The position numbers and the translations under genes are program-made. From a virus, in the IMG/VR virus record IMGVR_UViG_3300022555_000024, positions 48,340-112,339 of that record: a DNA stretch of 64,000 nucleotides. One strand, written 5' to 3'. This document shows positions 5,241 to 46,004 of this stretch, one piece after another (within the stretch, counting starts at the first letter, position 1; each line of letters starts with the position of its first letter). The notes beneath the pieces were generated by a model. The model was given only the letters and a program-made list of their open reading frames with translations. It had not been told where the DNA came from and ran no database searches.

Positions 5241-5317
5241 GTTGTTTATTAAATAAGTCTCCGATATATCATAAATAAGTTTATAAACCTCTCTTTTTAT
5301 AAATATTCTTATGATAA

Positions 5318-7694: not shown

Positions 7695-8827
7695 AATCAT
7701 TTAAGACATACATAACAGAGAAGAAGGACCACCTGATAGATAAGCTAGCGATTACCGATCACCAAAAGAAGGAACTTAAGGATTTTTTTGCAAAGAAACC
7801 AAACCTAGAGAACAAGATTGACTGGCAAAAGAAGGGTCTTGCCTTTAAGGATTTTGCGGATGTCATGGCCACGACGAAGACCGAAAGAACCAGGATGGTA
7901 AAGAAGCAGGGCATCGCCGGGCTCAAAGATGGCAAGGATTATCTTGAACTAAAGGTACCTGCAGATTTTCCATTCCAGGCCTACATCCCACTTACCTGGG
8001 AAGCTAGCAAACTAATCGCATCAAACAAGATAGGTAAAGGTACTGCCAAGTGGTGCACTGCCCATCATAGCTTATATAAACATTGGTATGAATATGCAGA
8101 TAATCTAGATGTTCTCATTTATCTCATAGGAAAAGATACCAAAATAGCAATGGTACTAGATGGTAATTATATAGATGATGTTTATGATATAGAAGACAAT
8201 ACTATTGAGATTGAAGCCGAATATCGTATTCTAGTGGATATCAACAAATCTTTAATAAATAAAGCCAGAGGTATTATAGAGAAAGGTTTAAAGGACAGAG
8301 TTTGGGATGGAGGCACGTGGCTAGGCGGCACTTGGACTGGTAGATTATGGAAAGGCGGAAACTGGAAAGATGGCAACTGGAAAGATGGAACATGGGAAGC
8401 CGGCAGTTGGGACCATGGAACATGGGAAGGTGGAATTTGGGAAGGCGGACTTTGGAGAAACGGCACCTGGGAAAAGGGTATTTGGCAAAACGGAATTTGG
8501 AAAGATGGCAACTGGAAAGGCGGCACTTGGAAAAACGGTGTCTGGGAAGGCGGAACCTGGCAATACGGGCTTTGGCGAAATGGCATCTGGAAAGGAGGTG
8601 ATTGGTGGGACGGCACTTGGTGGAACGGCACTTGGGAAGCAGGCACCTGGCAAGGCGGTACTTGGCAAGCAGGCACCTGGCAAGGCGGTACCTGGGAAGC
8701 CGGCCTCTGGGAACGCGGAGATTGGTTGGGTGGAACTTGGAAAGGCGGAGATTGGTGGGGTGGTTATGATATAAATGGCAATTATCATGAAATGGGTGAT
8801 TCACCAGATAAATGGAAACTAAAATGA
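7691..8827 (+). CDS. GxWxx-repeat family protein 1 (CTS + WCT domain + Trp pentapeptide repeats)
   Basis: MKSFKTYITE start, GTAKWCTAHH domain, about 30 GxWxx repeats, GGYD..GNYH..GDSPDKWKLK cap. Confidence 0.9.
   Translation: MKSFKTYITEKKDHLIDKLAITDHQKKELKDFFAKKPNLENKIDWQKKGLAFKDFADVMATTKTERTRMVKKQGIAGLKDGKDYLELKVPADFPFQAYIPLTWEASKLIASNKIGKGTAKWCTAHHSLYKHWYEYADNLDVLIYLIGKDTKIAMVLDGNYIDDVYDIEDNTIEIEAEYRILVDINKSLINKARGIIEKGLKDRVWDGGTWLGGTWTGRLWKGGNWKDGNWKDGTWEAGSWDHGTWEGGIWEGGLWRNGTWEKGIWQNGIWKDGNWKGGTWKNGVWEGGTWQYGLWRNGIWKGGDWWDGTWWNGTWEAGTWQGGTWQAGTWQGGTWEAGLWERGDWLGGTWKGGDWWGGYDINGNYHEMGDSPDKWKLK
8303..8763 (+). repeat. 15-nt imperfect tandem coding repeat (GGN-NNN-TGG-NNN-NNN)
   Basis: TGG every 15 nt. 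Confidence 0.9.
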
Positions 8828-9396
8828 AATCATTCAAGACATTTATAATAGAATCAAAAATAAGAAAAAGTTACTTCGATTCATCCATTCCAGTTGTCAT
8901 TCTTTATAAAACAGACGAGGAATATAACATTTGGGAACCGCGTTTTAAGAAATATGGATGGGCAATAGGTATCCTAGATAAGAAAATTATTATAGAAGAT
9001 GGCGAGATTATAAAAAATTTAACAAAAACACAAATCTTATTTGTAGAATCTCATGAATGTTCTCATTTTATACTTGGGGAAAAAGCTACAGAAGTAGAAT
9101 GTGATTGGCTTGCTATAGCAAATCTTTGGAAAAAAGGATTTAAAAACGCAGCAAAATTAGGAATAGACACCTTTGAGGAAAGAAATAATGTACTATTTGA
9201 TACTTCAGATCTTCCGGGTTATGATTCTTGGATAAAAAGAAATAAACATTTGGGCGAATGCTTTATTTTAGAATGCAAAGAAAAAAATATAGAGATATTA
9301 AAAGCTTTAAAGAATTCACAAAAATTTAATATTTACCCATCAAAAAGCACTTTAGAAAGTGCTTGGGAAATATACACAGAATCTATTATACATTAA
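8824..9396 (+). CDS. CTS-bearing putative zinc metallopeptidase
   Basis: MKSFKTFIIE start; HECSH (HExxH) followed by EVECD. Confidence 0.65.
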   Translation: MKSFKTFIIESKIRKSYFDSSIPVVILYKTDEEYNIWEPRFKKYGWAIGILDKKIIIEDGEIIKNLTKTQILFVESHECSHFILGEKATEVECDWLAIANLWKKGFKNAAKLGIDTFEERNNVLFDTSDLPGYDSWIKRNKHLGECFILECKEKNIEILKALKNSQKFNIYPSKSTLESAWEIYTESIIH

Positions 9397-9431
9397 AATT
9401 TTAAATTTATAATACTTTAATTATATTAAAA

Positions 9432-10322
9432 ATGAAAACGTATAAACATTTATTAGAAGAAATATCAATGTTTGAAAATAATGGTGAAGGTGGTGGAACT
9501 TGGAAAGATGGTATTTGGAGAGGTGGCACTTGGTTAGGCGGCACCTGGAAATACGGAATTTGGAAAGATGGAATTTGGAAAGACGGAATTTGGAAAGACG
9601 GAATTTGGAAAGATGGAACATGGAAACGCGGAGTATGGAGTGGCGGTACTTGGAAAGATGGAACTTGGATTAGTGGCACTTGGAAAGGCGGAAATTGGTG
9701 GGACGGTACTTGGAAAGGTGGCATCTGGGAAAATGGTACTTGGAATAAAGGAACTTGGATTAGTGGCACTTGGAAAGGTGGAACATGGTTTGACGGTATC
9801 TGGAACGGCGGAACATGGGAAAAGGGTATTTGGAAAGGTGGAACATTGGAACGCGGTGATTGGTGGGACGGTACTTGGCAAGGTGGTACTTGGAAAGATG
9901 GCACTTGGAAAGGCGGAACCTGGCAATACGGGCTTTGGCGAAATGGCAAATGGAATGGTGGCAAATGGAATGGTGGAACCTGGGAAGGCGGAACCTGGGA
10001 AGGCGGTACCTGGGAAGGCGGAACCTGGGAAAAGGGTATTTGGAAAGGTGGAACATGGGAACGCGGTGATTGGTGGGACGGTACTTGGCAAGGTGGCACT
10101 TGGAAAGGCGGCATCTGGAAAGGTGGAACATGGGAACGCGGTGATTGGTGGGACGGTATCTGGAAAGGCGGCACTTGGGAACGCGGCATCTGGAAAGGAG
10201 GTGATTGGTGGGACGGTACTTGGGAAGGCGGAGATTGGTGGGGTGGTTATGATAAATACGGCCGTTATCATGCAGCAGGCGATTCACCGGATAAATGGAA
10301 ACTAAAAAACAAACTAAAATGA
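9432..10322 (+). CDS. GxWxx-repeat family protein 2 (CTS + about 50 repeats, no WCT domain)
   Basis: MKTYKHLLEE start, nearly pure GxWxx repeat, same GDSPDKWKLK cap. Confidence 0.88.
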   Translation: MKTYKHLLEEISMFENNGEGGGTWKDGIWRGGTWLGGTWKYGIWKDGIWKDGIWKDGIWKDGTWKRGVWSGGTWKDGTWISGTWKGGNWWDGTWKGGIWENGTWNKGTWISGTWKGGTWFDGIWNGGTWEKGIWKGGTLERGDWWDGTWQGGTWKDGTWKGGTWQYGLWRNGKWNGGKWNGGTWEGGTWEGGTWEGGTWEKGIWKGGTWERGDWWDGTWQGGTWKGGIWKGGTWERGDWWDGIWKGGTWERGIWKGGDWWDGTWEGGDWWGGYDKYGRYHAAGDSPDKWKLKNKLK

Positions 10323-10597
10323 AAACGTATAAAGAATTTCGTACAGAAATAGGGTCTAAAACTTGGGACGATATTGCTGAAAATCCTAAATTAGTAGGAC
10401 ATATTCCTAGTAATATAAATAAAGAAATTTTAGATGATCCTAAAGATAGAAAATATTTGAAGTCTATTGGAAAAGCAAGGTTAAAGAAAGCAGAAGATCA
10501 ATGGAAAAAGATTATAGATGATCCAGAAGAAGTAGGTAGTATTCCAAGTAACTATCCTGGGAAATTTAAAGGTGGTAATTTTGCAAACACAATTTGA
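10319..10597 (+). CDS. small CTS-bearing protein with internal duplication
   Basis: MKTYKEFRTE start; W..I...P..VG.IPSN occurs twice. Confidence 0.7.
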   Translation: MKTYKEFRTEIGSKTWDDIAENPKLVGHIPSNINKEILDDPKDRKYLKSIGKARLKKAEDQWKKIIDDPEEVGSIPSNYPGKFKGGNFANTI

Positions 10598-11718
10598 TGA
10601 AATCATTCAAGACATACATAACGGAGAAGAAGGACCATCTTATAGATAAGCTAGCGATTACCGATCACCAGAAGAAGGAATTGAAGTCGTTTTTTGCAAA
10701 GAAGCCAAACCTAGAGAACAAGATTGACTGGCAAAAGAAGGGCCTGGCATTTGCCGATTTTGCAGATGTCATGGCCACGACGAAGACCGAAAGAACTAGG
10801 ATGGTAAAGAAGCAGGGTATTGCCGGGCTCAAAGATGGCAAGGATTATCTTGAATTGAAGTCACCTGCAGATTTTCCATTCCATGCCTACATCCCACTTA
10901 CCTGGGAAGCTAGCAAACTAATCGCATCAAACAAGATAGGTAACGGAACAGCCAAGTGGTGCACAGCACACCACAGCTTATATAAACATTGGTATGAATA
11001 TGCCGAGAATTTTCGTGTTCTCATTTATCTCATAGGAAAAGATACCAAAATAGCAATGGTACTAGATGGTAATTATATAGATGATGTTTATGATATAGAA
11101 GACAATATCACCACGGTTAAACCAGAATACCATACCCTAGTGGATATCAACAAATCTTTAATAAATAAAGCCAGGGGTATTATAGAGAAAGGTTTAAAGG
11201 ACAGAGTTTGGGATGGAGGCACGTGGCTAGGCGGCACTTGGACTGGTAGATTATGGAAAGATGGAACATGGTATCGCGGAACCTGGGAAGCCGGAATTTG
11301 GAAAGATGGAATTTGGAAAGACGGAATTTGGAAAGACGGAATTTGGAAAGATGGAACATGGGAAGCCGGCCTCTGGGAACGCGGAGATTGGTTGGGTGGA
11401 ACTTGGAAAGGCGGAGTCTGGGAAGATGGTGTTTGGGCCAGAGGTAGATGGGAAAGTGGTATTTGGCGAGGCGGCACTTGGGAAGACGGTCATTGGTATA
11501 GTGGCACTTGGATTAGTGGCACTTGGTTGGACGGCACTTGGGACGGCGGAACCTGGCGAAATGGCAACTGGAAAGGAGGTGATTGGTGGGACGGCACTTG
11601 GGAACGCGGTACCTGGAGAGGTGGCACTTGGTTAGGCGGCACCTGGTATGGTGGTTATGACATAGATGGCAATTATCATGTAGCGGGCGATTCACCAGAT
11701 AAATGGAAACTAAAATGA
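10597..11718 (+). CDS. GxWxx-repeat family protein 3
   Basis: Near-identical N-domain to 7691..8827; about 30 repeats in a different order. Confidence 0.9.
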   Translation: MKSFKTYITEKKDHLIDKLAITDHQKKELKSFFAKKPNLENKIDWQKKGLAFADFADVMATTKTERTRMVKKQGIAGLKDGKDYLELKSPADFPFHAYIPLTWEASKLIASNKIGNGTAKWCTAHHSLYKHWYEYAENFRVLIYLIGKDTKIAMVLDGNYIDDVYDIEDNITTVKPEYHTLVDINKSLINKARGIIEKGLKDRVWDGGTWLGGTWTGRLWKDGTWYRGTWEAGIWKDGIWKDGIWKDGIWKDGTWEAGLWERGDWLGGTWKGGVWEDGVWARGRWESGIWRGGTWEDGHWYSGTWISGTWLDGTWDGGTWRNGNWKGGDWWDGTWERGTWRGGTWLGGTWYGGYDIDGNYHVAGDSPDKWKLK

Positions 11719-14563: not shown

Positions 14564-14974
14564 ATGTTCGAAGAACCAGCAAAATTTAAACTAGTATATG
14601 AAGTTCCCAGTGTAGAAAGCATATATTCATTTATAGTTAAAACTTCTTCTTATAATGTATATTTCAAACATATAGGGAATAATGTATATACTTCTAATTT
14701 TTTATTATATAGTCATAATGGTGAAATATTGATTACTATGGATAAGATAGATGTCGGCTTAGATGTTTCTATAGTTGTGTTTATAACATTCATAAATATA
14801 ATGAAAGATTTTGCTTCTAGAATAAACCCTAGCGCAATAGAATTTAGAGCAAATGATGCAGATAGTGAGAAACGAGCGTCTTTATATAAAACATTAACAA
14901 AGAAATTTATACCAGATGAGTATGAATTTTCTACAGTTTACATAATAACACCAAAAAATAAAATACATGAATAA
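14564..14974 (+). CDS. paralogue of 62891/63328 family
   Basis: VFITF..I.KDF.....P..I.F.A...R.SLY....KKFIP..YE shared with 63328..63771. Confidence 0.7.
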   Translation: MFEEPAKFKLVYEVPSVESIYSFIVKTSSYNVYFKHIGNNVYTSNFLLYSHNGEILITMDKIDVGLDVSIVVFITFINIMKDFASRINPSAIEFRANDADSEKRASLYKTLTKKFIPDEYEFSTVYIITPKNKIHE

Positions 14975-15932
14975 GTTATCAAAAAATGAAGTCAATGCAA
15001 CAGCAAGAGGCGGTTCTGAGTTACAAGCAGAGTATTTACAAAAATATGTTGCAAAAGAACTTCTAGATCAATTTCAAATAATAATAACAAGAGTTAGAGA
15101 ACTCGAAGACAAACCACGTTTACTCTGGTGTAAGGAAGTTGTTTCTGAACCAGAATCTCAGAGGTTAAAAGAACCTGCATTCCGTGATAATTTTAGATAT
15201 ATCATACACAATTCTGATTATCAGAGAAATCAGTTTAGAGATTATCTTGGAGTTCCATTTGAAAAATCACACGTCTTGAAAAATGCAATAGAACCATCGA
15301 ATATAGACATTTCTAAAAAATTTTTTCCAGAGAAGGTAAAACTTATTTATTCTTCTACTCCACAAAGGGGCCTTAATATTTTATATTCTGTTTTTGACGA
15401 GCTTTATAAGGATGACAAAAACATAGAACTAAATGTGTATTCTTCTTTTGATATCTATGGTCATCATGAAAGAAATAAACCATTTTTGCCACTGTTTGAT
15501 CAATGTAAATCTCATCCAGGGATAAATTATTATGGTTCAGTTTCTCATGAAGAATTGAAAGATGCTACAAAAGAAAATCACATTTTAGCATACCCTTCAA
15601 TCTGGGAAGAAAGTAGTTGCACTACTATCATGGAAAACATGAGTGCAGGAAATCTTATAGTGACTAATAACTTAGGAGCATTGCCCGAAACCAGTGCAGG
15701 TTTCTCCTTAATGTATGATTATCAATCTAACCTTAATCTACACGCACAGAATTTCTATAATACGTTAAAAGAAGGTATTGACAGTATAAGGGGCAACGGG
15801 ATAGGAAAAAAAATAAATGGAATGAGTATTACTAGCCTTTTAGAAGAACAAAAAAAATACGCAGACATTTTCTATAATTGGGAATTCAGAGGGCAACAAT
15901 GGACAGAATTCTTAACTAAATTGTTAAAATGA
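14967..15932 (+). CDS. GT-B (GT4-like) glycosyltransferase
   Basis: GGSE, YSSTPQRGL, YPSIWEESSC...E.MSAG...GALPET. Confidence 0.85.
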   Translation: MNKLSKNEVNATARGGSELQAEYLQKYVAKELLDQFQIIITRVRELEDKPRLLWCKEVVSEPESQRLKEPAFRDNFRYIIHNSDYQRNQFRDYLGVPFEKSHVLKNAIEPSNIDISKKFFPEKVKLIYSSTPQRGLNILYSVFDELYKDDKNIELNVYSSFDIYGHHERNKPFLPLFDQCKSHPGINYYGSVSHEELKDATKENHILAYPSIWEESSCTTIMENMSAGNLIVTNNLGALPETSAGFSLMYDYQSNLNLHAQNFYNTLKEGIDSIRGNGIGKKINGMSITSLLEEQKKYADIFYNWEFRGQQWTEFLTKLLK

Positions 15933-21576: not shown

Positions 21577-22011
21577 ATGGAAAATAAATCAAAAGTTGGA
21601 AAAATTGGTGAACTCTTGTGGATTAGAGAATTTGGTGGAAAGCAATTAGATGATGCTTTTGATCAAGAATGTGATGTTTTTTTGGATGACAAAAAAATAG
21701 AAATTAAAACACAAGTTAGATTTTACAAAGAAAATGCCTTCACTGTAGATAAAAATCAACTTCAAAAATGCCTAGGCTGGCCAAATCTTAAAAAGGGATT
21801 CGGTGCTCAGTTTCTACATTTCGTTGAATACGATTTGTGCACTCCTATTATTACATTTTGGGAATGTTCAGATAGATTCGATTATAGGGAATTAAGTAAT
21901 GGGAGAATAGCTTGGGATATTAGTAAAATGACAAAAATCAAGGAAATACAAGATGTCGAATCATCAATGCAGTTGCAACAAAACACGAGCTCAAGATATA
22001 GAGCAAACTGA
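21577..22011 (+). CDS. PD-(D/E)xK nuclease-like protein
   Basis: GKIGE...CDV...IEIKT. Confidence 0.5.
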   Translation: MENKSKVGKIGELLWIREFGGKQLDDAFDQECDVFLDDKKIEIKTQVRFYKENAFTVDKNQLQKCLGWPNLKKGFGAQFLHFVEYDLCTPIITFWECSDRFDYRELSNGRIAWDISKMTKIKEIQDVESSMQLQQNTSSRYRAN

Positions 22012-22339
22012 ATCTATTAAAGTACTTTTAGAAGCTTTAGATATTCAGCGTAAAAAATCTACAGATTATCAAAATCCAAATTCTAGTATACATCAAGCAG
22101 ATTATTATCCCAGAGGAGTATCTTCCATATTAGATATAATTCAAGGTAAAGCACTTCGCATCAGATCTGTTATAGAAGCTATGGAAAATGATGTTAATTA
22201 TACTCCAAATTTCGAGTCTATAGAAGATTCATGTATAGATTTAATAAATTATGCATCTTTTGCGGTATCTTATTGTAGAGGAAAAATGGATGGTCAGAAA
22301 GCTGACAAAGATTTTTTGAATAGAAAAATAAAAAAATAA
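21953..22339 (+). CDS. nucleotide-modification-associated domain 1 (DUF1599/MazG-like) protein
   Basis: KKSTDY...DYYPRG...SIEDSCIDLINYASF; adjacent to gp42-like gene. Confidence 0.7.
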   Translation: MSNHQCSCNKTRAQDIEQTESIKVLLEALDIQRKKSTDYQNPNSSIHQADYYPRGVSSILDIIQGKALRIRSVIEAMENDVNYTPNFESIEDSCIDLINYASFAVSYCRGKMDGQKADKDFLNRKIKK

Positions 22340-22343
22340 AAAA

Positions 22344-22994
22344 ATGATTTCTACAATAGATAAAATACGCGATGAGTTTCGTATTAAATTATTATCTGGA
22401 ACATTTGTTATAGACAAAACCGGGGTAAAAACAGTAGATATTATAGGTGCAAAATTTTTAGCTAATGAACCGTTTATTTTTGGTACACCAAATCAAGATT
22501 ATATAAGAAGAGAATTAGCATGGTATGAATCTCAGAGCAGAAATGTTTATGATATTGAAGAACCAGTACCATTAATTTGGAAAAAATGTGCAAGCCCGGA
22601 AGGTCTTATTAATTCTAACTATGGTTGGTGTATTTATTCTAAAGAAAATGGATCACAATATGATAACGTTTTAAAGGAACTTCGGCAAAATTCTGAATCT
22701 AGACGGGGCCAGATGATATATACGAGACCCAGTATGCATTCCGATTTTAATACAGATGGAATGTCTGATTTTATGTGTTGTAGCAACACAACTCATTTTA
22801 TAAGATCGGGAGAATTAGAAACAACTGTAAATTTTAGAAGTCAGGATGCTGTATTCGGTTATAATAATGACTATGCATTTATGAAATATGTTCACGATAA
22901 ATTGGCTAATGATTTAAATATAAGACCTGGAAATATTCATTGGTTTGCATCTTCACTCCACATTTATGAACGACACTTTAAATTTATAAAATGA
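22344..22994 (+). CDS. 42: dCMP hydroxymethylase (T4 gp42-like, thymidylate synthase fold)
   Basis: NSNYGW, IYTRPSMH, DFMC catalytic Cys, RSQDAVFGYNNDY with Asp at the dCMP-specificity position, SLHIYERHF. Confidence 0.85.
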   Translation: MISTIDKIRDEFRIKLLSGTFVIDKTGVKTVDIIGAKFLANEPFIFGTPNQDYIRRELAWYESQSRNVYDIEEPVPLIWKKCASPEGLINSNYGWCIYSKENGSQYDNVLKELRQNSESRRGQMIYTRPSMHSDFNTDGMSDFMCCSNTTHFIRSGELETTVNFRSQDAVFGYNNDYAFMKYVHDKLANDLNIRPGNIHWFASSLHIYERHFKFIK

Positions 22995-23440
22995 CAGAAA
23001 AAGAACTTTATTGGGCAAAAAGATACTTAGGAATAGCTAAAGAAGTGTCAACGTGGTCAAAGGATCCATCAACAAAAGTTGGTGCTGTTGCTGTTGGTTC
23101 AAAGGGCCAAATATTATCTCAGGGTTTTAATGGTTTTGCTCGGGGTATTAAAGATACCACCGAAAGATTAAATAACAGAGAAATGAAATATTCTCTGATG
23201 GTTCATGCAGAAATGAATACTATTTATAATGCAACTTATAATGGAGTATCTCTCGATGGAGCTTCTCTATACGTTTATGGTCTTCCTGTATGTAGTGAAT
23301 GTGCAAAGGGAATTATACAGGTTGGGATACGTTCTGTTTATATGAACATAGAATCAGAATGGCCTGAAAAATGGAAAGATTCTTGGGAATTTACCAAGAC
23401 AGTATTTACAGAATGTGGTGTTAAATTTTATTTAATATGA
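22991..23440 (+). CDS. cd: dCMP deaminase
   Basis: SKDPSTKVGA, HAEMN, PVCSECAK. Confidence 0.9.
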   Translation: MTEKELYWAKRYLGIAKEVSTWSKDPSTKVGAVAVGSKGQILSQGFNGFARGIKDTTERLNNREMKYSLMVHAEMNTIYNATYNGVSLDGASLYVYGLPVCSECAKGIIQVGIRSVYMNIESEWPEKWKDSWEFTKTVFTECGVKFYLI

Positions 23441-24540
23441 AAATAGCTGTTATTAAGTTAGGGGCACGGTTAGTATTTGGCGATAAGGTTGGTTCTAGTG
23501 GCGGCAGTGGTGAAGCTCAATCATTGGTAAATATGTTATCAGAAGCTGGAGCAGAAGTTCATTGTTTTACAAAGATACTTAAGGATGATTATATACCAAA
23601 TGATATTAATATACATCAAATAGAAGAAGAATATTCAACAGTGAACACTTATGATATACTTATTGTTATAAACGGAACTGTGAACTTTTTTGGAGGTGTT
23701 GCTGATAATTCACAGATTTTAAATTATCATATGATAAACAATTTTTCTAAGAAAGTTATATACATTCATTGTGATCCCAATCTTCCTTTGAAACAACTTT
23801 GGCCTTCTATAAAGAATAGAACATGGGCTTCTGATTGGAAAGAATCTGATATAGTTATTGTTAAGAAAATAGATGTAGTTACTCAATCAACAAACATAAC
23901 AAAAGTACTGACAGCATTTAAGGACATACATATAGATAAGATTTTTCAATACGATTTCCAGAAATTTCCTATGATGTTTGTAAAACCACAAATATCAGAA
24001 GAAAGAATTTATACATCTGACTTATCTTATGGCGGAACATTTAGAGCAGGCCGCAGAGAAAAGAAATTAATAGAATTTTACTTTGGGTATCCCGAAGATT
24101 TAAAAGTAGAATTGTTTGGGAAAATTAAAGAAGAAAAATTTAACCCCCAAAAAGTAGGAACTCTTAGATCTCCAAACTTTTCTGGCCCAGTTGATTACAA
24201 TAAAATGCTTCATAAAATGTCAGAATCCAAAGCACATGTTGCTATAGGGGATGGACATTACCCAGAGTTTGGGATGATTTCTCAGAGAGTATATGAGTCA
24301 ATCATGTCTGATTGCGTTACGTTTATAGATATAGATTTTGATAGAAATAAAAGAGTTTTTGGAGACACTGAATTAGGTAAATTTCTTTATGTAACAAATA
24401 GAGATCAAGTTTATAAAAGGTTAAAAATGTTAACTAATTCTGAGCTAAATACTATAATAAAATTACAACATAAAATAGTAGATTTTAATAGAGATACATA
24501 TTGCTCCGATTTTTATAAACTAATTCAAAATTTAGCATGA
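23437..24540 (+). CDS. DNA beta-glucosyltransferase-like enzyme
   Basis: MKIAVI, YDILIVINGTVNFFGG, LPLKQLWPSIKNRTWA, YGGTFRAGRREKK, RVYESIMSD..FID.DFD; collinear with T4 Bgt as recalled. Confidence 0.85.
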   Translation: MKIAVIKLGARLVFGDKVGSSGGSGEAQSLVNMLSEAGAEVHCFTKILKDDYIPNDINIHQIEEEYSTVNTYDILIVINGTVNFFGGVADNSQILNYHMINNFSKKVIYIHCDPNLPLKQLWPSIKNRTWASDWKESDIVIVKKIDVVTQSTNITKVLTAFKDIHIDKIFQYDFQKFPMMFVKPQISEERIYTSDLSYGGTFRAGRREKKLIEFYFGYPEDLKVELFGKIKEEKFNPQKVGTLRSPNFSGPVDYNKMLHKMSESKAHVAIGDGHYPEFGMISQRVYESIMSDCVTFIDIDFDRNKRVFGDTELGKFLYVTNRDQVYKRLKMLTNSELNTIIKLQHKIVDFNRDTYCSDFYKLIQNLA

Positions 24541-25343
24541 CACAAATAAAAGATACATTCGATGATTCATCATCCATGTTTTTTAATAATAATTATTTTG
24601 GGAATGCAAAGTTTTCCAACGGGTGGCACATGTCGTTTGCCTTTAGATATACTACAACATGTACAGAAATTTTAAGAGTAAAGAGAGAAAATCAACAAGA
24701 CTCACTAAAAATATTAGATATTGGGTGTGGTAACAAGACATTTTACAGATTTTGGATGTGCAATTTTGACTCCCATTGTAGACCTAGAATTAATTATGTC
24801 GGTTTAGAGTACCTTAAGGATGTTGTGGAAGAAGCAAATAAGACCTCCAGCGAGACTTTTGCCAATTCAAATGAAGTAATTCAATATGATTTGAATACAC
24901 AATCACTGCATGACATAGGAAAATTTGAAAAATATGATGTTATACTTTTACAGGAAATTCTAGAACATGTTACAGAAGAAACTGGTAAATCTCTTTTAAA
25001 AGAAGCAAAAGAAATTTTATCAGATCGAGGTTTCATAATTGTTTCGTCTCCTAATCCAAAAAAATCTCAAGGACAAGAATTTGTCTGGCCGGAAAATCAT
25101 ATTCAGGAGTTTACTTTAGACGAAATGAAAGCTATGATTCAGGAAGCAGGATTTTCTATTAAACGTGTGAATGGTTGGTTGGGTAAAGCTAAATATTTTA
25201 AGAAATTGCTAGATAAAGAAACTTTAGATTTGTATAATAATGTTAAAGATGTATCTCAAGGTTTAGCTGCTAGTATTATAGCATTCATGAAACCAGAGAT
25301 AGCTGAATGCTATATTATAGTTGCCGAAAACAATAAAAAATAA
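24537..25343 (+). CDS. class I SAM-dependent methyltransferase
   Basis: ILDIGCG, YDVILLQEILEHV, SSPN, H..EFT. Confidence 0.85.
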   Translation: MTQIKDTFDDSSSMFFNNNYFGNAKFSNGWHMSFAFRYTTTCTEILRVKRENQQDSLKILDIGCGNKTFYRFWMCNFDSHCRPRINYVGLEYLKDVVEEANKTSSETFANSNEVIQYDLNTQSLHDIGKFEKYDVILLQEILEHVTEETGKSLLKEAKEILSDRGFIIVSSPNPKKSQGQEFVWPENHIQEFTLDEMKAMIQEAGFSIKRVNGWLGKAKYFKKLLDKETLDLYNNVKDVSQGLAASIIAFMKPEIAECYIIVAENNKK

Positions 25344-25347
25344 TAGT

Positions 25348-25753
25348 ATGCAAAAATACGTTTTGGGTTTTATATTTGATACTGGATTGGAACACGTAGT
25401 ATTAATAGAAAAAAAACAGACCTGATTGGCAAAAAGGAAAACTCAACGGAATAGGAGGTAAGATAGAATATAATGAATCTCCTTTAGATGCTATGATAAG
25501 AGAAGCACATGAAGAAACAAACGTAACGTCGGATCTTTGGCTTTACGTTGCTACTTTATATTTTACAGAATGCGAATTGCATGTATTTGCTGTAAGTGGA
25601 TTGGAGTATTATCAAGCAATTTCGATGACCGATGAAAAAATCCAAAAGTTAAGAATAAAAGATCTTGGTATTACTACTATTAAACCAATAGAAAATGTTC
25701 CATCATTGATAACTTTAGCTAAACAATCTTTAATAACAGAATTTTATACATAA
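25348..25753 (+). CDS. Nudix hydrolase, apparent extra A in A8 run at 25409-25416
   Basis: Removing one A gives MQKYVLGF...RPDWQKGKLNGIGGKIEYNESPLDAMIREAHEET (Nudix box). Confidence 0.8.
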
Positions 25754-25756
25754 AAT

Positions 25757-27538
25757 ATGAAAATTGTAATATTCTCTGGTGGCACCGGATCTGTTGGTTT
25801 ACAACGAGGACTTTATAAAGTTTTTGGTCCTGATTGTTTAGATTATTCTGTTATAATTAATTGTTATGATAATGGAAAAAGTACTGGTACTTGCCGCCAA
25901 GTTTTTGACGGAAAAATATTAGGACCATCAGACTTAAGAAAAAATCAACTTCTTAGACACGAATTATCTCATGGTAATAATAAGCTTTTAGAATTTTTAG
26001 AACAACGTCTTACTTTTTCTTATTCTGATATAGAAGATGCGATAACTGATCAGTTGGTAGATTTATTAGACAAAAATGATGAGCATGAACTCGATTTGTA
26101 TTCTATTTGTATGGAAGGAACCCAACTTTTTTTTAACTCAGAAAATGCTACTAATGTAGAGTATAAAGACTTTTCTGTAGCTAATATAATATATTCGGGT
26201 TTAGCATCAAAGTATGGTATGAACGGAGCAGCGAAACAAATGTCTAGAGTTCTTGGAATATATCCGGACGATGTTATTTGCAACGATGATACCTCACTCT
26301 TTTTACAAGCCAAAACCAAATCGGGTCATATAATATCAGATGAAGGAGATTTGGTAGAATGGAATAATGCGGAAGATAAAATAACAGAATGTTTTTTGTT
26401 AGATGTAGATGGAAATCAAGCAACACCAATCTTAACAACTGAATGTAAAGATTTAATAGACAATGCAGATGTTTTAATATTTTCATCAGGAACTCAATGG
26501 TCTTCTCTTATCCCAACTTATATGTCTATAGGATTTACAGAAGCTATATCTAAGAGTAAAGCTAAGAAATATGTAGTTTTAAATACGTCTCAGGATAAAG
26601 ATATTAAAGGCCTGTCTGGTTTAGAACTTCTTGATCTAATAACAACTCATCTTAAAGTTGATACCAAGACACTTATCCCAGTTATTTCTAGTAATGCATC
26701 TGATGATATTTTAATAACACCCGATCAAGTAGAACAAGTAAAACAAAAATTTGCAGATGTTGTTTATTCCGAAATGAGTGAAGGGAATAAACACAATCCA
26801 AATAAACTAGTTCTTTCTATATTTGGGAATTATTTTGGAATTAAAACTATTTTAGATAGAAATAATTTAGTCTTTGATTTAGATGACACTGTAATAGCAA
26901 GAAATCTAAATTTTGAGTGGATTTCGAGAGAAAATTGTGCAATGTTTGACTTTATTAACAGATCAAACAAACTTTCTTTGTTTATCTGTACAGGAAACGA
27001 TGTTAGCAAATTGAAAGGACATTTCGAAACATCTATAAACACCTTTGCGGATGGCGGCGTTAATGAATATCTAGTATCTAAAGAAAACATAACATTTATA
27101 AAGCATTTAGATAATGATATGCTTATCGAAAAATCCACAATGGAAACTCTTATAGAACTCTTAGATGTTCATGGAATACCAAAGCGTATGATACAGAATA
27201 GAAACAATTCTATTTTATCTATTAGACCTATATTACCTGAATATAGATATTCAATTTTTAATTTAATTTTCTATATTCTAATAATAAATAATTTGAATGA
27301 TAGGATAGAAGTAAAAATGACAGGAAATAGTACGGTAGAATTGTCTACCATATCGTTATCTAAAACTGTTATTATGAACACTATATTTAAGGATAAGGAA
27401 ATTTCTTACGTTGGGGACGAGCCTATTGGAAACGATAAGGATATGTTTTCTAATCCAAAAATTCATGGAATAAAAGTTAAGGGAGCTTTTGACACAAATA
27501 TGTTATTAAAAATATTATGCATTCACTCATTATCGTAG
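25757..27538 (+). CDS. CofD/YvcK (UPF0052)-like domain fused to HAD phosphatase
   Basis: N-term FSGGTG, DNGKSTG, GPSDLRK, ADVLIFSSGTQWSSLIP; C-term FDLDDT, CTGN, YVGD...GND. Confidence 0.8.
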   Translation: MKIVIFSGGTGSVGLQRGLYKVFGPDCLDYSVIINCYDNGKSTGTCRQVFDGKILGPSDLRKNQLLRHELSHGNNKLLEFLEQRLTFSYSDIEDAITDQLVDLLDKNDEHELDLYSICMEGTQLFFNSENATNVEYKDFSVANIIYSGLASKYGMNGAAKQMSRVLGIYPDDVICNDDTSLFLQAKTKSGHIISDEGDLVEWNNAEDKITECFLLDVDGNQATPILTTECKDLIDNADVLIFSSGTQWSSLIPTYMSIGFTEAISKSKAKKYVVLNTSQDKDIKGLSGLELLDLITTHLKVDTKTLIPVISSNASDDILITPDQVEQVKQKFADVVYSEMSEGNKHNPNKLVLSIFGNYFGIKTILDRNNLVFDLDDTVIARNLNFEWISRENCAMFDFINRSNKLSLFICTGNDVSKLKGHFETSINTFADGGVNEYLVSKENITFIKHLDNDMLIEKSTMETLIELLDVHGIPKRMIQNRNNSILSIRPILPEYRYSIFNLIFYILIINNLNDRIEVKMTGNSTVELSTISLSKTVIMNTIFKDKEISYVGDEPIGNDKDMFSNPKIHGIKVKGAFDTNMLLKILCIHSLS

Positions 27539-28254
27539 CAGCTGGAAATGGTAGTAGGATGGGCAGTATTCCCATTCCTAAGGCTTTATTTCCAATTAAT
27601 GGAAAACCAAATATAGAATGGATTATAGAAAGTGCTAGAGGTTATTTTGATGATATTATTATTGTAGCAAGAAATGGGTTTGGATTTCATTTTAACTATT
27701 TAAAAAATTCAAAAGAAACTCCAATAAGTATTCTAGAAATAAGTTCAGGATTAGGTGACGGCCATGCAGTTCTTTCTACTCTTCAAATTCTAAAGGATCA
27801 AGGGAAATTGGATGAAAGAATAATAACAATAATATGGGGAGATTTATATTGTCCTACTTCTATACTTTTTGTCGAATTAAAATCTCACATTTCAAATATA
27901 TCTAGACAGCCAATAATAGTTCCTGTAGCATACGAGAAAGATCCATATGTACATTTTTCTATAGATCCTGATGGAAAAATACGAGCAGCAAATTTTAGTA
28001 AATTTGGAGAAATTATAACAGAAGGTCTTCATGATCAATCAGTATTTATGGGCAGTGCGAGAGTGTTTCTTAAATTTTTAACAGATTTGCATAATTCTTT
28101 ATGGAAAGATGGCAAATATGTATCAAATTCGGGTGAACTCAACATGCTTCATATCTTCCATCTTATGTATAACGTAGGTTCTCCAGCCATAGTTCATATA
28201 ACAGAAAATATTTTATCATCCTATAACTCGGTCAAGGAGGCCGAAAAAATATGA
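27517..28254 (+). CDS. sugar-phosphate nucleotidyltransferase (NTP_transferase)
   Basis: IIVAAGNGSRMG...PKAL, GDGHAV, IWGD. Confidence 0.85.
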   Translation: MHSLIIVAAGNGSRMGSIPIPKALFPINGKPNIEWIIESARGYFDDIIIVARNGFGFHFNYLKNSKETPISILEISSGLGDGHAVLSTLQILKDQGKLDERIITIIWGDLYCPTSILFVELKSHISNISRQPIIVPVAYEKDPYVHFSIDPDGKIRAANFSKFGEIITEGLHDQSVFMGSARVFLKFLTDLHNSLWKDGKYVSNSGELNMLHIFHLMYNVGSPAIVHITENILSSYNSVKEAEKI

Positions 28255-28703
28255 CACCTCAATTGAAATTTTGTAAAGTAGCAGATGTAAAATCACCAAC
28301 AAGAGCACATAGTACAGATGCGGGAATTGATTTTTTTGTACCAAATGATTTTATAGAAACCTTATTAAAACCTGGTTGTTCTATTCTTATTCCATCTGGA
28401 ATTAAGGTCGATGTACCTATTGGGTGGGCTTTAGTATTCTTTAATAAATCTGGTGTTGCCGTTAAGAAGAATCTTTTGGTAGGAGCGGAAGTTGTAGATT
28501 CTGGATATGAGGGTCAAGTACACATACATCTTATCAACGTGGGTACAGGAATTACTACAATATCATCAGGAGAAAAGATAATTCAAGGTATTATGTTACC
28601 TATAGGTTCTCACTTTCCCATTGAAACTTTAGAAGAAGATATGTGGAAGGATTCTAAATCTGATAGAGCAGAAGGCGGTTTTGGTTCTTCTGGTGTAAAA
28701 TAA
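28251..28703 (+). CDS. dut: trimeric dUTPase
   Basis: AGIDF, KSG, VVDSGYEG, R.EGGFGSSG. Confidence 0.92.
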   Translation: MTPQLKFCKVADVKSPTRAHSTDAGIDFFVPNDFIETLLKPGCSILIPSGIKVDVPIGWALVFFNKSGVAVKKNLLVGAEVVDSGYEGQVHIHLINVGTGITTISSGEKIIQGIMLPIGSHFPIETLEEDMWKDSKSDRAEGGFGSSGVK

Positions 28704-34016: not shown

Positions 34017-34811
34017 ATGAAAAAATTACTAATTATTCTTGGGATACTTTTAACATCTGCAACTGCTTATTCTAAACCTATTATAATTGATGGCTCAACA
34101 ACAGTAGGTCCAATAGCAAAATCTTTTGCATCAGAATTCCAAAAGAATGGAATTGAGGTTTCAGTGTCAGAATCTGGCTCTGGAAACGGTGTAAAGTCAC
34201 TACTCAATGGAACTTGTGACGTTGCAACTTCTTCAAGACATTTAAAACAAGAAGAAATTACCGCAGCAAGTACGAAGGGAGTGCATCCTGTTCTAACAAT
34301 AGTAGCTCTTGATGGATTGTCAGTTATAGTTCATCCAAGTAATCCAATAAAGAATCTTACTATTCAACAAGTAAGTGATATCTATACCGGAAAAATAACA
34401 AATTGGAATCAAGTAGGTGGTCCATTTGCTATTATTAATGTTATTCAACGAGAATCTAATTCTGGTACACAGGAAGCGTTCCACGAGTTGGTTATCGGAA
34501 AGGATAATCATACTAAACAAGGTGCAGAAACTCAATCATCATCTGGTGCTGTTAAGAATAGAGTAGCATCAACACCTTCTGCGATTGGTTATGATGGTCT
34601 TGGATTTGTTGATAAATCTGTTAAAGCATTAACAATAAATGGAATCAAGGCATCCTCTATAACAGTTAAAAGTAATCAATATAAGATATCTAGGCCTTTA
34701 TATTTTATAACAAATGGTGCACCAGTAGGAAATGTTAAATTGTTTGTTGATTATGCAAAAAGTGTTTCAGGAAAAAAAATAATTACCGAACTAGGATTCA
34801 TAGTAAAATAA
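34017..34811 (+). CDS. pstS: phosphate ABC transporter substrate-binding protein
   Basis: Signal peptide, DGSTTV, GSGNG, SSR, VALDG, RESNSGT, AIGY, SRPLY. Confidence 0.92.
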   Translation: MKKLLIILGILLTSATAYSKPIIIDGSTTVGPIAKSFASEFQKNGIEVSVSESGSGNGVKSLLNGTCDVATSSRHLKQEEITAASTKGVHPVLTIVALDGLSVIVHPSNPIKNLTIQQVSDIYTGKITNWNQVGGPFAIINVIQRESNSGTQEAFHELVIGKDNHTKQGAETQSSSGAVKNRVASTPSAIGYDGLGFVDKSVKALTINGIKASSITVKSNQYKISRPLYFITNGAPVGNVKLFVDYAKSVSGKKIITELGFIVK

Positions 34812-43334: not shown

Positions 43335-44219
43335 ATGATAATAATGAAGTTGAATTTAGATTCTGATTTTAATCCATCTGTAAATCTTGATATTGGGAAT
43401 GCTCAAGATACGATTACTGCCGATTTATTTCAATTTTCTGGTGGAGAGTGGCACATAAAGGTTAATAAATTTCGTCACTATAAAGACTATAAGGTCGTTA
43501 TAACAAACAGATTCAAGGATGGTAATGATTTATTGAAAGTTTTTATTGCTAAAGATGCACTTGAAAGAATGGGTGTTAAGCATTTTGAGCTTATTATGCC
43601 ATATATTCCATATGCAAGGCAGGATAGGCAATGCGCAGAAAGAGAATCTTTTAGTCTCAAAGTTTTTGCTAATCTTTTGAATACTGCTAAATTTGATAAG
43701 GTTACAGTATACGATGCTCATTCTGATGTTGCGCCAGCAATTATAGAAAATTGTGTTAATATTTCCAATACTCGTTTTGTGAGACAAATAATACCTGAAT
43801 TAAAACTCGATAAATTTTTATATCTAGTTTCGCCTGACTCTGGTGCTAATAAGAAAATGAATATTTTATATTCGAAGATGATAACACATTTTGGTATTAA
43901 TTATCCTATAGGATTAATAAAATGTGATAAAAGAAGAAACACACAAGATGGTACTATTGATGGATTTGAAGTATTCTGTGATGATATCAAGGGAGCAAAT
44001 TGTTTGATTGTAGATGACATCATAGATGGCGGAGCAACATTTATTGGAATTGCTAAAGAACTAAAGAAAAAGAATGCTGGTAATATTTATTTGTTCTGTA
44101 CTCATGGAATTTTTTCAAAGGGATTTGATCAATTAAGAATTAGTGGAATACAACATATTTTTTCAACTAATTCTTTTAGTGATAGTAAAGATGAAATTTT
44201 AACTAGATTTTCTATTTAA
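43335..44219 (+). CDS. PRPP-synthetase-like enzyme (candidate ADPR-PP synthetase, Adps)
   Basis: FSGGE, MPYIPYARQDR, DAHS, SPDSGA, IVDDIIDGGATF, THGIFSKG. Confidence 0.88.
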   Translation: MIIMKLNLDSDFNPSVNLDIGNAQDTITADLFQFSGGEWHIKVNKFRHYKDYKVVITNRFKDGNDLLKVFIAKDALERMGVKHFELIMPYIPYARQDRQCAERESFSLKVFANLLNTAKFDKVTVYDAHSDVAPAIIENCVNISNTRFVRQIIPELKLDKFLYLVSPDSGANKKMNILYSKMITHFGINYPIGLIKCDKRRNTQDGTIDGFEVFCDDIKGANCLIVDDIIDGGATFIGIAKELKKKNAGNIYLFCTHGIFSKGFDQLRISGIQHIFSTNSFSDSKDEILTRFSI

Positions 44220-44944
44220 CTCATGGTATATTTTCAAACAAATTTGAGGATTTAGCGAAGTATTTTGAGTTAATTTTTACTACAAACTCAATGAAAGATA
44301 TTAGCAATAATCTTGTTGTTCAATACAAAATCTAAAAGACATGAACTTAAAAGAAGCAATTGAAAGTTATAATGATTCAATCGAATATATTAGAACGTAT
44401 ATCGATGATAATCCTCTTCAAATAGAGGAAGCTAAAAACATTATATAGATAGACATAATTTTCTTCATCCAGATTCGGTATTGAGTGGTACGTTTCCATG
44501 GTTCCATAAAATAGATGGTGATTTGATTGTATTCCATCAGGTTAATGGAGAACATGATGAGTATCTTCATATTGATTTTGTTTATCTATTTGACGAAGAA
44601 TATAAACGGAAATCACATGACGAGCTTATTGAAATAATAAAATGTATAAAATAATGCTAACAGCAACAGAAGCAGCGGAACTAACTATCGAAGTCAAAGG
44701 GTTTACGTAAAAAGGGAAATGGAGGAGATATTAGAGGAAATAAAAGTGCTTGCAAAATATGGTAATCATGTTTATAGATCTAGTATAATATCTAGTTATG
44801 CAATTATAGAATTGAAGAAATTAGGATTTAAAGTTTCAGCTCGTGGAGAGTCTTATAATGAAATGCTTTCTGTTTCTTGGGATCATTTGATATCTACCGA
44901 CTTAAATATCATAGACACAATTAAATTTAAATAATAATAATAAA

Positions 44945-45229
44945 ATGCCATTTTTTAAAAAGAAGCTAGTAATAATAGAAGCAGTTCAATTTAAAACTTT
45001 AGATAGTATTCATGAACTACAGCATTTTATGGGAGATGCATTAATCAATTGGGGGATAGACGATAATTCTGTTGGATGGGTTGAAATTGGTACTCTTGAG
45101 GATGGTGAAGGAGATCACCAGGTTAAACATATTGCTACGGAAGGCGATTTTATTATAAAAGGTGTGGAAGGTGAATTTTATGCCTGTAAATCAGATATTT
45201 TTGAAAAAACTTATATAAATTTATATTGA
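44945..45229 (+). CDS. conserved phage hypothetical protein
   Basis: KK.VIIEAVQF...TLE...GDFIIKGVEGEFYACK.DIFEKTY. Confidence 0.75.
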   Translation: MPFFKKKLVIIEAVQFKTLDSIHELQHFMGDALINWGIDDNSVGWVEIGTLEDGEGDHQVKHIATEGDFIIKGVEGEFYACKSDIFEKTYINLY

Positions 45230-45457
45230 TAGAGAAGATTAGTAAATTCCTACACGAAGAGTGTTGGATGGTATATGCCAATAGATTGATAAAAAACATC
45301 AGAACCAATCGAGGAAACAAAAAAGAGGTGGCAAAAGGATTGCATCATGCCCTATGAGGATTTATCAGAAGTTGAAAAGGAAAAGGATCGTCAGTTCGCA
45401 AGAAAATTACTCGAATTATTGGATAAACATAAGGAAGACACGAGAACTTTAAATTAA
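45226..45457 (+). CDS. small RyR-domain-like protein with apparent homopolymer frameshift at about 45291-45297
   Basis: LHEECW... then, in the next frame, MPYEDLSEVEKEKDRQFA. Confidence 0.5.
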
Positions 45458-45470
45458 TTAACAACACAAA

Positions 45471-45982: not shown

Positions 45983-46004
45983 TATCATTTAAATTGAATA
46001 AATT

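Follow-up and report, generated by a model that had tools for sequence, protein, structure and literature searches.

In the 64,000-nucleotide stretch of viral DNA analyzed here (the window; positions 48,340 to 112,339 of IMG/VR virus record IMGVR_UViG_3300022555_000024), a gene encoding a fusion of a CofD-superfamily domain with a haloacid dehalogenase-type (HAD) domain is followed by a putative nucleotidyltransferase gene, the two open reading frames (ORFs) sharing 22 nucleotides (27517-27538). The source is a freshwater T4-like phage. The window has a GC content of ~30%, its long ORFs lie nearly all on the plus strand, and the rest of it is T4-like, encoding UvsX-like and gp41-like proteins. 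Closely packed 5´ of the fusion, all on the plus strand, are genes for a DUF1599 protein, a homologue of the T4 dCMP hydroxymethylase gp42, a dCMP deaminase, a homologue of the T4 DNA glycosyltransferase Bgt, a methyltransferase and a split Nudix hydrolase (Table 1). The product of dCMP hydroxymethylase is the 5-hydroxymethyl-dCMP precursor. The fusion and nucleotidyltransferase pair lies in a T4-type 5-hydroxymethylcytosine (hmC) cluster, as both enzymes of T4-type hmC glycosylation were found, a dCMP hydroxymethylase (PDB match 1b49) and a Bgt-type transferase (PDB match 1bgt).

The fusion is a real two-domain protein family, far beyond what chance could produce. A word-indexed search recovered at least 597 relatives of the fusion's length among 8000 scored candidates. 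The 120 relatives listed are 528-649 residues long, on contigs no larger than 345 kb. Query coverage is at least 94% for 118 of them and 91% and 100% for the other two. One of the 120 is gene 1 of the Ralstonia jumbo phage RsoM2USA, and a tblastn search with the fusion against 50,697 phage records found matches in two only, RsoM2USA and an uncultured 462-kb phage. The module is found in jumbo phages and T4-like phages, and PHROGs holds no family for the fusion. An AlphaFold2 (AF2) model built on 40 relatives has two domains, with a mean predicted local distance difference test (pLDDT) score of 93.7 and a predicted template modeling (pTM) score of 0.91. The initial annotation had described a UPF0052-type domain fused to a DxDxT HAD domain in a gene overlapping that of a nucleotidyltransferase, and the Pfam match to PF01933, the HAD motifs, the two-domain model and the 22-nucleotide overlap all bear this description out.

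Further family members were sought with an N-domain profile in HMMER, which returned 510 proteins at E ≤ 1e-30 from 1.84 billion representatives of 50% identity clusters. The 259 stored proteins matching this profile comprise 229 with CofD and phosphomannomutase (PMM) domains, seven with CofD and nucleotidyltransferase domains and 23 with CofD alone, many of them short. In the seven, which are representatives of the phage-like family, the nucleotidyltransferase is fused behind the CofD-like protein; in six of the seven, the middle segment is HAD-like but divergent and includes a DYDYT motif. Shorter, stand-alone forms of the N-domain account for 14 matches, mostly on contigs of 0.5-3 kb and fragment-like; these are no evidence for stand-alone phage forms, nor do they prove their absence.

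The N-terminal domain matches PF01933 (CofD) over fusion residues 3-327 (E 9.1e-18, 64.9 bits against a Pfam cut-off of 30), but this Pfam family spans the whole CofD superfamily, YvcK included. More specific comparisons point to YvcK. A profile of 15 N-domain sequences matched five YvcK/UPF0052 structures with E-values of 4.9e-32 to 1.8e-21, while the true CofD structure 3c3d was matched at only 1.6e-3, across 35 residues. The structural comparison with CofD and GlmR that had been proposed in the initial annotation gave the same answer: in VIA-align, the N-domain model scored Z 31.2 against the YvcK structures 2hzb, 2ppv and 2o2z (289-299 residues aligned, root mean square deviation 2.4-3.2) and Z 20.3-20.9 against CofD and FbiA. 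Because of these profile matches and Z-scores, together with a score below the curated NCBIfam cut-off for YvcK, the N-domain forms a separate CofD-superfamily clade, nearest YvcK/GlmR and distinct from true CofD.

Residues of the N-terminal active site are strongly conserved. The Gly-rich loop (G8, G9, G11), D38, R47, D59, R61, K62, R84, D280 and D282 are invariant in 40 of 40 aligned relatives, and the N-domain combines the YvcK/GlmR fold with the N-terminal active-site motifs, namely the Gly-rich loop and the Asp of the DD/DN motif. In FbiA, D45 and D57 hold the catalytic metal together with the GDP beta-phosphate (PMC7253369); GlmR reportedly has two adjacent catalytic aspartates (PMC13046274, PMC10128056), and R301 and Y265 of Bacillus subtilis GlmR bind uridine diphosphate (UDP)-N-acetylglucosamine (UDP-GlcNAc) (PMC10128056, PMC13046274). 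D38 and D59 look like the equivalents of the FbiA and GlmR catalytic aspartates, a correspondence read from motif position and not from a computed superposition. The first Asp of the YvcK catalytic motif is thus kept as D38, and the DN form is also found in Staphylococcus epidermidis YvcK (2ppv alignment). By contrast, the third reported catalytic residue, N198 in Listeria (PMC10128056), aligns by eye with a threonine in the N-domain.

The C-terminal domain displays all four HAD superfamily motifs (DxDxT; S/T; K; GDxxxD-type). The translation contains DLDDT at 374-378, TGN at 412-414 and GDE..GND at 553-560, and D374, D376, D377, T378, G413, N414, K536, G553, D554, E555, G558, N559 and D560 are invariant in 40 of 40 relatives, with T412 kept at the 90%-or-more level in the same alignment. 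Precomputed matches to PF03332 (PMM) or PF08282 (HAD-IIB) exist for 26 of the 120 listed relatives, nine of which match PF03332. A profile of 15 C-domain sequences matched PMMs with E-values of 6e-16 to 1e-7 (7myv, 6e-16; PMM2 2amy, 3.1e-13) and alpha-phosphoglucomutase 4bnd at 3.3e-10, whereas generic Cof-type HAD-IIB phosphatases were matched at 3e-3 or weaker. Foldseek likewise placed PMMs first (E 3e-11 and weaker), followed by the atypical alpha-phosphoglucomutase and trehalose-phosphate phosphatases.

In the alignment with PMM2, read by eye, D374/D376 pair with D12/D14, R482 with R123, R497 with R141, T526 with S179, K536 with K189 and D554/D560 with D209/D217. In PMM2, we take D12/D14 to be the catalytic Asp pair and R123, R141 and S179 to form the distal phosphate site. 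The equivalents R482, R497 and T526 are invariant or nearly so in the 40-sequence alignment; R482 and T526 fall below 90% in a more divergent alignment. The best profile and Foldseek matches of the C-domain are thus eukaryote-type PMM1/PMM2 and the Lactococcus atypical alpha-phosphoglucomutase (4bnd), with catalytic and phosphate-site equivalents aligned. The C-domain differs from these enzymes in being only about 20% identical, in lacking the short loop that carries PMM2 R134 in the printed alignment and in being fused behind a CofD-fold domain. We therefore regard it as a candidate eukaryote-type PMM-like domain, an assignment made because the sequence profile alone separates PMM from other HAD-IIB enzymes. 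The HAD label of the initial annotation stands as far as the motifs go, but both profile and Foldseek suggest a PMM-like enzyme instead of a generic phosphatase.

The nucleotidyltransferase matches PF12804 (NTP_transf_3, MobA-like; E 1.7e-11, 45 bits against a cut-off of 27) and belongs to an unnamed family in PHROGs. Its top PDB sequence match is GlmU (E 1.6e-7), with an LG(D/T)GHAV stretch in common, and IspD and TarI follow at about 1e-4. In the AF2 model (pLDDT 94.7), the best Foldseek matches are the N-domains of GlmU (template modeling score normalized to the query, TMq, 0.72-0.83), then RmlA, GMPPA/B, HddC and LicC. The protein has the sugar-1-phosphate nucleotidylyltransferase signature (GxGxR, Lys, LGxGHA stretch, Mg-binding Asp) together with the fold, and G10, R14, K22, G80 and D109 are invariant in 24 of 24 sequences. 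It has no acetyltransferase domain (NCBIfam). By every comparison it is predicted to be a sugar-1-phosphate nucleotidylyltransferase and not CofC; indeed, neither CofC nor FbiD was seen among its PDB sequence, Foldseek and NCBIfam matches.

These findings bear on the analogy with coenzyme F420 synthesis, in which CofC and CofD (FbiD and FbiA) act in succession. Part of that analogy, drawn in the initial annotation, survives: the N-domain has the same superfamily fold (Z about 20-21), a Gly-rich loop and two conserved aspartates in comparable motifs, and a nucleotidyltransferase gene lies beside the CofD-fold gene. The remainder does not, as the sequence similarity to CofD is marginal, the N-domain is nearer YvcK/GlmR and the module partner is GlmU-like, not CofC-like. 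No F420-pathway family was found among the 73 window ORFs scanned with Pfam. A CofD/FbiA identity of the N-domain was considered and dropped: PF01933 is matched, but specific similarity, a CofC/FbiD-type partner and F420 genes were not found.

To define the genomic context, we used the 40-sequence alignment as query, since a single-protein query matched no viral contigs. The resulting viral set comprises 38 loci, 37 from IMG/VR plus RsoM2USA, with 28 distinct fusion sequences. By tblastn, 35 of the 38 have a Bgt-like gene, in most cases immediately 5´ of the fusion, and 21 have a gp42-like gene. The nucleotidyltransferase was found by profile in 36, nearly always abutting the fusion. In RsoM2USA, the nucleotidyltransferase (39% identity, E 2e-48) is the last gene of the linear record and lies beside gene 1 across the ends, bringing the total to 37 and leaving a single locus (L035) without one. 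Other viral neighbors encode guanylate-kinase-like, thymidylate-kinase-like and MazG-like proteins, ribonucleotide reductase, dCMP deaminase and dUTPase.

Three viral loci have no Bgt-like match. One is truncated at its start, and another (L018) has a C5 DNA methylase nearby. The third (L024) carries a TET-associated glycosyltransferase (PF20691, E 8.9e-26; 5247-6218) upstream of the fusion and nucleotidyltransferase. Because this locus has the PF20691 enzyme and no Bgt-like gene, the module appears to pair with more than one DNA-glycosyltransferase family.

Two further viral loci are of note for their gene content. L025 has a Bgt-like gene, a methyltransferase, the fusion and the nucleotidyltransferase, as well as a stand-alone GlmU C-terminal-type hexapeptide acetyltransferase (5564-6436; TIGR01173 positions 251-447, E 8.4e-71), the presence of which hints at an N-acetylhexosamine as the donor in this phage. 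L030 encodes a small cupin_2 protein (6495-6860) between its gp42-like and Bgt-like genes, perhaps a sugar isomerase or epimerase, perhaps unrelated.

Relatives of the module are also found in cells. A scan of one genome per species gave 79 cellular loci, of which 76 have the nucleotidyltransferase by profile. The CofD::PMM fusion is present in 19, each with a nucleotidyltransferase within 3 kb. In five annotated CofD::PMM loci the nucleotidyltransferase abuts the fusion, 5´ of it in four loci from gut Firmicutes and 3´ of it in one from Steroidobacteraceae. The gut Firmicutes fusion is ~30% identical to the phage fusion and lies in polysaccharide loci; the four loci carry GT2 or GT8 enzymes, Wzx-type flippases and/or initiating sugar transferases. 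In a Lachnospiraceae polysaccharide cluster (L057:9798-11813), a glycyl-radical enzyme (PFL-like) and a radical S-adenosylmethionine (SAM) protein, possibly its activase, flank the nucleotidyltransferase and fusion pair.

A second architecture, CofD::GT2, in which the GT2 domain is of the polyprenyl-phosphate-hexose-synthase kind, is found in 52 of the 79 cellular loci. Most of these have a HAD protein of the beta-phosphoglucomutase (beta-PGM) family and a nucleotidyltransferase within 3 kb; the top PDB match of this HAD partner is a carbohydrate phosphatase (E 1.9e-20). CofD::GT2 loci come from Acidobacteriota, Bdellovibrionota, Patescibacteria and Woesearchaeota, with GtrA, GT-C and more GT2 genes among their neighbors. 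Single-ORF fusions are recurrent: NTase::CofD::GT2 (NTase, nucleotidyltransferase) in eight cellular loci, all four domains in one, and HAD::NTase in L088. Since co-occurrence and single-ORF fusions recur across viruses, bacteria and archaea, the HAD, nucleotidyltransferase and CofD-like trio behaves as one functional unit.

The CofD::GT2 operon itself (L063, L079, L061, L073, L083, L088, L086 and L110; ~6400-10800 in most) consists of genes for a beta-PGM HAD, a GlmU-like nucleotidyltransferase, CofD-like::GT2 and a second GT2, often with GtrA, GT-C (PMT_2), radical SAM and methyltransferase genes. Our literature searches found no publication on this cellular operon.

The surface-glycan setting of all cellular relatives raises the question of whether the phage module, too, serves glycans other than DNA, making donors for glycosylation of the host envelope or of phage proteins. 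The adjacency to the Bgt-like gene would then be incidental, and the window does encode a GT4-type glycosyltransferase that could use such donors, as the initial annotation had pointed out. The viral loci speak against this idea. Homologues of the window GT4 were found in none of the 38, while a Bgt-like gene is present in 35 and is replaced by a TET-associated glycosyltransferase in one of the remainder. In addition, the viral neighbors belong to nucleotide metabolism (gp42-like, dCMP deaminase, kinases, MazG-like, ribonucleotide reductase), and Bgt-like and gp42-like genes were found in none of the 79 cellular loci. Thus, use of the product by the GT4 enzyme finds no support, and we regard a module unrelated to DNA modification as very unlikely.

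Taken with the adjacency of the nucleotidyltransferase to the fusion in most viral loci, the association with Bgt-like genes favors the other alternative raised in the initial annotation, synthesis of a nucleoside diphosphate (NDP)-sugar for the Bgt-like enzyme. We consider the pair probably to be a borrowed module that makes a UDP-hexose, a UDP-hexosamine or another nucleotide-activated hexose for the adjacent Bgt-like enzyme to use on hmC, each step being proposed from homology and gene association. In this scheme, the gp42 homologue would make hydroxymethyl-dCMP, which is incorporated into DNA. The PMM-like domain would supply hexose-1-phosphate from a host sugar phosphate, acting either as a mutase (6-phosphate to 1-phosphate) or as a phosphatase on a hexose bisphosphate. 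The GlmU-like enzyme would couple the hexose-1-phosphate with UTP (or another nucleoside triphosphate, NTP) to give the NDP-sugar, and the Bgt-like enzyme would move the sugar onto hmC of phage DNA. The YvcK/GlmR-like domain would be an integral fourth activity, with a metal-dependent diphosphate site at which it would act on soluble intermediates, either sugar phosphates or NDP-sugars. The unit as a whole would have been borrowed from cellular surface-glycan pathways.

As the YvcK-like domain is always present, it must contribute to the pathway. Tentatively, its step may be uridylyl transfer of the GlmR type or handling of the product. Phosphotransfer that makes a hexose bisphosphate is possible but ranks below this, and phospho-sugar transfer of the CofD type is more doubtful again; we think it quite unlikely that the domain is a non-catalytic sensor, and what probability remains falls to some other step.

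A different use of the same enzymes, also put forward in the initial annotation, would place the CofD-like domain on DNA. Here, the PMM-like domain and nucleotidyltransferase would make an NDP-hexose, and the CofD-like domain would move hexose-1-phosphate or a phospho-group from it onto a DNA-linked sugar or an hmC hydroxyl, releasing the nucleoside monophosphate and leaving a phosphodiester-linked, negatively charged hypermodification. Each domain would then act as its best-characterized relatives do. The target of FbiA and CofD is the beta-phosphate of an NDP-linked group (NDP-X), which they attack with the metal on D45 and D57 (PMC7253369), and the invariant D38 and D59 would, on motif reading, be their equivalents. 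The cellular order HAD, nucleotidyltransferase, CofD, GT2 is also collinear with the steps, and NTase::CofD fusions fit as well.

The charge of the CofD-like domain, however, is unusual for a DNA-acting enzyme. Its net charge is about -19 in the window (viral median -10, median pI 5.1), and cellular relatives are alike in this respect; the Bgt-like protein carries +1.3. Because the domain is strongly acidic and shares this property with its cellular relatives, its charge points to soluble substrates rather than to direct action on DNA, although the point is not decisive. A soluble substrate also fits better than DNA and lipid-linked glycan acceptors for a fusion that recurs at ~30% identity in gut Firmicutes polysaccharide loci. 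Moreover, the N-domain is much nearer YvcK than CofD/FbiA, and a CofD::PMM fusion would unite the first and last steps of such a pathway. We therefore consider phospho-transfer onto DNA or its sugar unlikely, and the charged phosphodiester product equally so.

The identity of the HAD partners suggests yet another order of events, which would end in the same product as the donor-supply pathway favored here. The heptose pathway (HldE/GmhB) follows kinase, phosphatase and nucleotidyltransferase logic. By analogy, the CofD-like domain would phosphorylate the anomeric hydroxyl of a sugar omega-phosphate from an NDP or NTP donor, the HAD domain would strip the distal phosphate and the nucleotidyltransferase would activate the remaining sugar-1-phosphate. 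The composition of the trio is that of the heptose and phage UDP-arabinofuranose pathways, the latter with the AfhE/AfhF scheme (PMC13326640), except that a CofD-like domain stands where they have a kinase. Two subfamilies supply the HAD partner: phages and Firmicutes have a PMM-type enzyme, the CofD::GT2 operons one of the beta-PGM/sugar-phosphatase type. Two phosphatases could presumably swap in this manner, while an alpha- and a beta-mutase would not. For this reason, a shared dephosphorylation of bisphosphates explains the two subfamilies more easily than anomer-specific mutase action, although this is not decisive. Retention of the equivalents of the PMM distal-phosphate site is as expected for a bisphosphate substrate, and CofD::HAD fusions would unite consecutive steps.

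CofD::GT2 and NTase::CofD::GT2 fusions, on the other hand, would unite non-consecutive ones. To our knowledge, no CofD-fold kinase has been described, and none appears in the available portions of the YvcK/GlmR and CofD/FbiA literature cited here. The activities reported there for YvcK/GlmR are UDP-sugar binding and uridylyl transfer (PMC10128056, PMC13046274, PMC5482804). Thus, we view the kinase order as doubtful. The same holds for a bolder version, in which the CofD/YvcK-like domain would be a new sugar phosphotransferase, using CofD-style attack on a nucleotide beta-phosphate, and the trio would make an unusual donor, for example an amino, furanose or other non-glucose hexose. If this were true, these phages would carry a so far undescribed hmC adduct, and the obligate phosphomutase-like fusion would point to the long-disputed job of the YvcK/GlmR family.

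Several observations weigh against donor supply by a PMM-like, GlmU-like and YvcK-like module. As T4 manages with host UDP-glucose and without a donor module of this kind, a supply module is not obviously needed. A mutase and a nucleotidyltransferase suffice to make an NDP-hexose, leaving the ever-present CofD-like domain without a necessary role. The individual assignments are also distant ones: the N-domain scores 57.2 bits against the curated NCBIfam YvcK (TIGR01826) cut-off of 196, the nucleotidyltransferase scores 45.8 bits against the GlmU equivalog cut-off of 658 (NCBIfam), and Pfam gives no HAD match, PF03332 included, on the window fusion at E ≤ 0.01. VIA-align does not separate PMM (Z 17.8) from trehalose-6-phosphate phosphatases (17.2) or other HAD-IIB enzymes (15-17) for the C-domain. 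Lastly, the only relatives with a resolved mechanism are CofD and FbiA, which make phosphodiesters from NDP-X (PMC7253369), chemistry that by analogy fits better with phospho-transfer onto the DNA-linked sugar than with donor supply.

Among known systems, YvcK/GlmR, which acts with GlmM and GlmU in UDP-GlcNAc synthesis in Firmicutes and Actinobacteria, offers the nearest fold and sequence relatives of the N-domain. The likeness extends to the setting, in which the N-domain is accompanied by an enzyme resembling sugar-phosphate mutases and by a GlmU-like uridylyltransferase, to which L025 adds the GlmU C-terminal-type acetyltransferase. Unlike YvcK, however, the N-domain has a PMM-like fusion partner and lacks yvcJ/whiA neighbors, and the module sits in phage DNA modification or surface-glycan loci and not in peptidoglycan precursor control.

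The phage UDP-arabinofuranose pathway (RB69, DLP3, HY126; PMC13326640), in which arabinose-5-phosphate isomerase, the kinase/nucleotidyltransferase AfhE and the HAD phosphatase AfhF serve DNA arabinosyltransferases, is similar in that a host sugar phosphate is converted by phage-encoded HAD and nucleotidyltransferase enzymes to an NDP-sugar beside a thymidylate-synthase homologue and DNA glycosyltransferases. The window module differs from it in having no SIS isomerase or APH-type kinase, in having a CofD-fold domain instead and in its Bgt-like transferase; the base is predicted to be hmC via the gp42 homologue here and is 5-hydroxycytosine there. T4 hmC glucosylation (gp42, Bgt) has clear homologues of both enzymes in the window, but the donor module has no known T4 counterpart. 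By analogy, then, the module seems to resemble both the GlmM/GlmU/GlmR triad and the phage UDP-arabinofuranose route while being a member of neither. Because it scores below the curated thresholds for YvcK and GlmU and shows no specific similarity to CofD, it falls outside all three families and is most aptly classed as a phage-encoded route that supplies nucleotide sugars for DNA glycosylation and derives from an uncharacterized cellular glycan module.

The module is widespread and unstudied. In literature searches, which did not extend to supplements, we found neither the fusion nor its association with DNA glycosyltransferases described. The Bgt-like ORF2 is noted in the RsoM2USA genome paper, and "CofD" is absent from the part of its text that was searchable, supplements excluded. 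Whether a phage can be cut by a given restriction, CRISPR or type IV system depends on its DNA hypermodifications, and few sugar-donor routes are known in phages, the UDP-arabinofuranose of RB69-like phages being one. The module probably marks phages whose hmC bears something other than host-supplied glucose. It may also be viewed as a "Rosetta stone" for YvcK/GlmR, in which a mutase-like enzyme and a GlmU-like nucleotidyltransferase are the constant companions of a YvcK-like domain. As this association is found in viruses, bacteria and archaea, the disputed function of the YvcK/GlmR family becomes testable with soluble substrates.

Other genes of the window are less consistently linked to the pair (Table 1). 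Homologues of the methyltransferase, 36-62% identical, were found in four of the 38 viral loci (L002, L003, L004 and L025). The methyltransferase was considered as a conserved fourth partner, an idea that was dropped; there was a single weak cellular match (30% over 159 residues, E 9e-8). No homologue of the DUF1599 ORF was found in the 38 viral loci. Downstream of the nucleotidyltransferase, a polynucleotide kinase gene is present besides the dUTPase-family gene.

Table 1. Positions of the fusion, the nucleotidyltransferase and other features in the window.
Feature	Position	Strand	Details
CofD::HAD fusion ORF	25757..27538	+	593 residues
Fusion N-terminal domain, residues 1-363	25757..26845	+	CofD superfamily, putative YvcK/GlmR-like branch; loop GGTGS
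Fusion C-terminal domain, residues 364-593 plus stop	26846..27538	+	HAD-IIB fold, putative eukaryote-type phosphomannomutase kind
Nucleotidyltransferase ORF, GlmU N-terminal-domain-like	27517..28254	+	245 residues; Pfam NTP_transf_3
T4 Bgt-like DNA beta-glycosyltransferase	23437..24540	+	PF09198 E 1.2e-23; phrog_7922 E 6e-58; T4 Bgt 1bgt E 1.6e-45, residues 1-352
Class I SAM-dependent methyltransferase, between Bgt-like gene and fusion	24537..25343	+	Pfam Methyltransf_23/31/12/11; NCBIfam UbiG 5.5e-11, below cut-off
dCMP hydroxymethylase, T4 gp42 homologue	22344..22994	+	PDB 1b49 (T4 deoxycytidylate hydroxymethylase) E 3.5e-73, residues 4-214
dCMP deaminase	22991..23440	+	PF00383 E 3.1e-17; phrog_174 E 3.1e-38
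dUTPase-family protein, immediately 3´ of nucleotidyltransferase	28251..28703	+	PF00692 E 7.9e-18; phrog_135 E 1.9e-35
Nudix hydrolase gene split over two frames, immediately 5´ of fusion	25348..25753	+	From translations
DUF1599 ("nucleotide modification associated domain 1") ORF, immediately 5´ of gp42 homologue	21953-22339	+	
GT4-type glycosyltransferase	14967-15932		

The stretch 24500-28300 recurs with zero differences in freshwater/lake metagenome contigs from three studies of 2016-2020, the runs possibly including the source of the window. This region contains the split Nudix gene, which is interrupted at a run of eight A residues (25409-25416): the N-terminal strand stops at 25423-25425, and the Nudix box lies in the next frame. 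With one A fewer, the ORF would be single and encode about 134 residues. The A8 run is identical (0 differences, 0 gaps) in contigs of four runs from the three studies, and because of this recurrence the split is not a one-off assembly slip. The gene may be a pseudogene or may be read by slippage, and contigs cannot reveal minority variants; whether it belongs to the module is uncertain. Finally, auxiliary metabolic genes are present at 34017-34811 and 43335-47612, encoding a PstS-like phosphate-binding protein, a phosphoribosyl pyrophosphate (PRPP)-synthetase-like protein, a NADAR domain and a NAMPT-like protein (nicotinamide adenine dinucleotide salvage).

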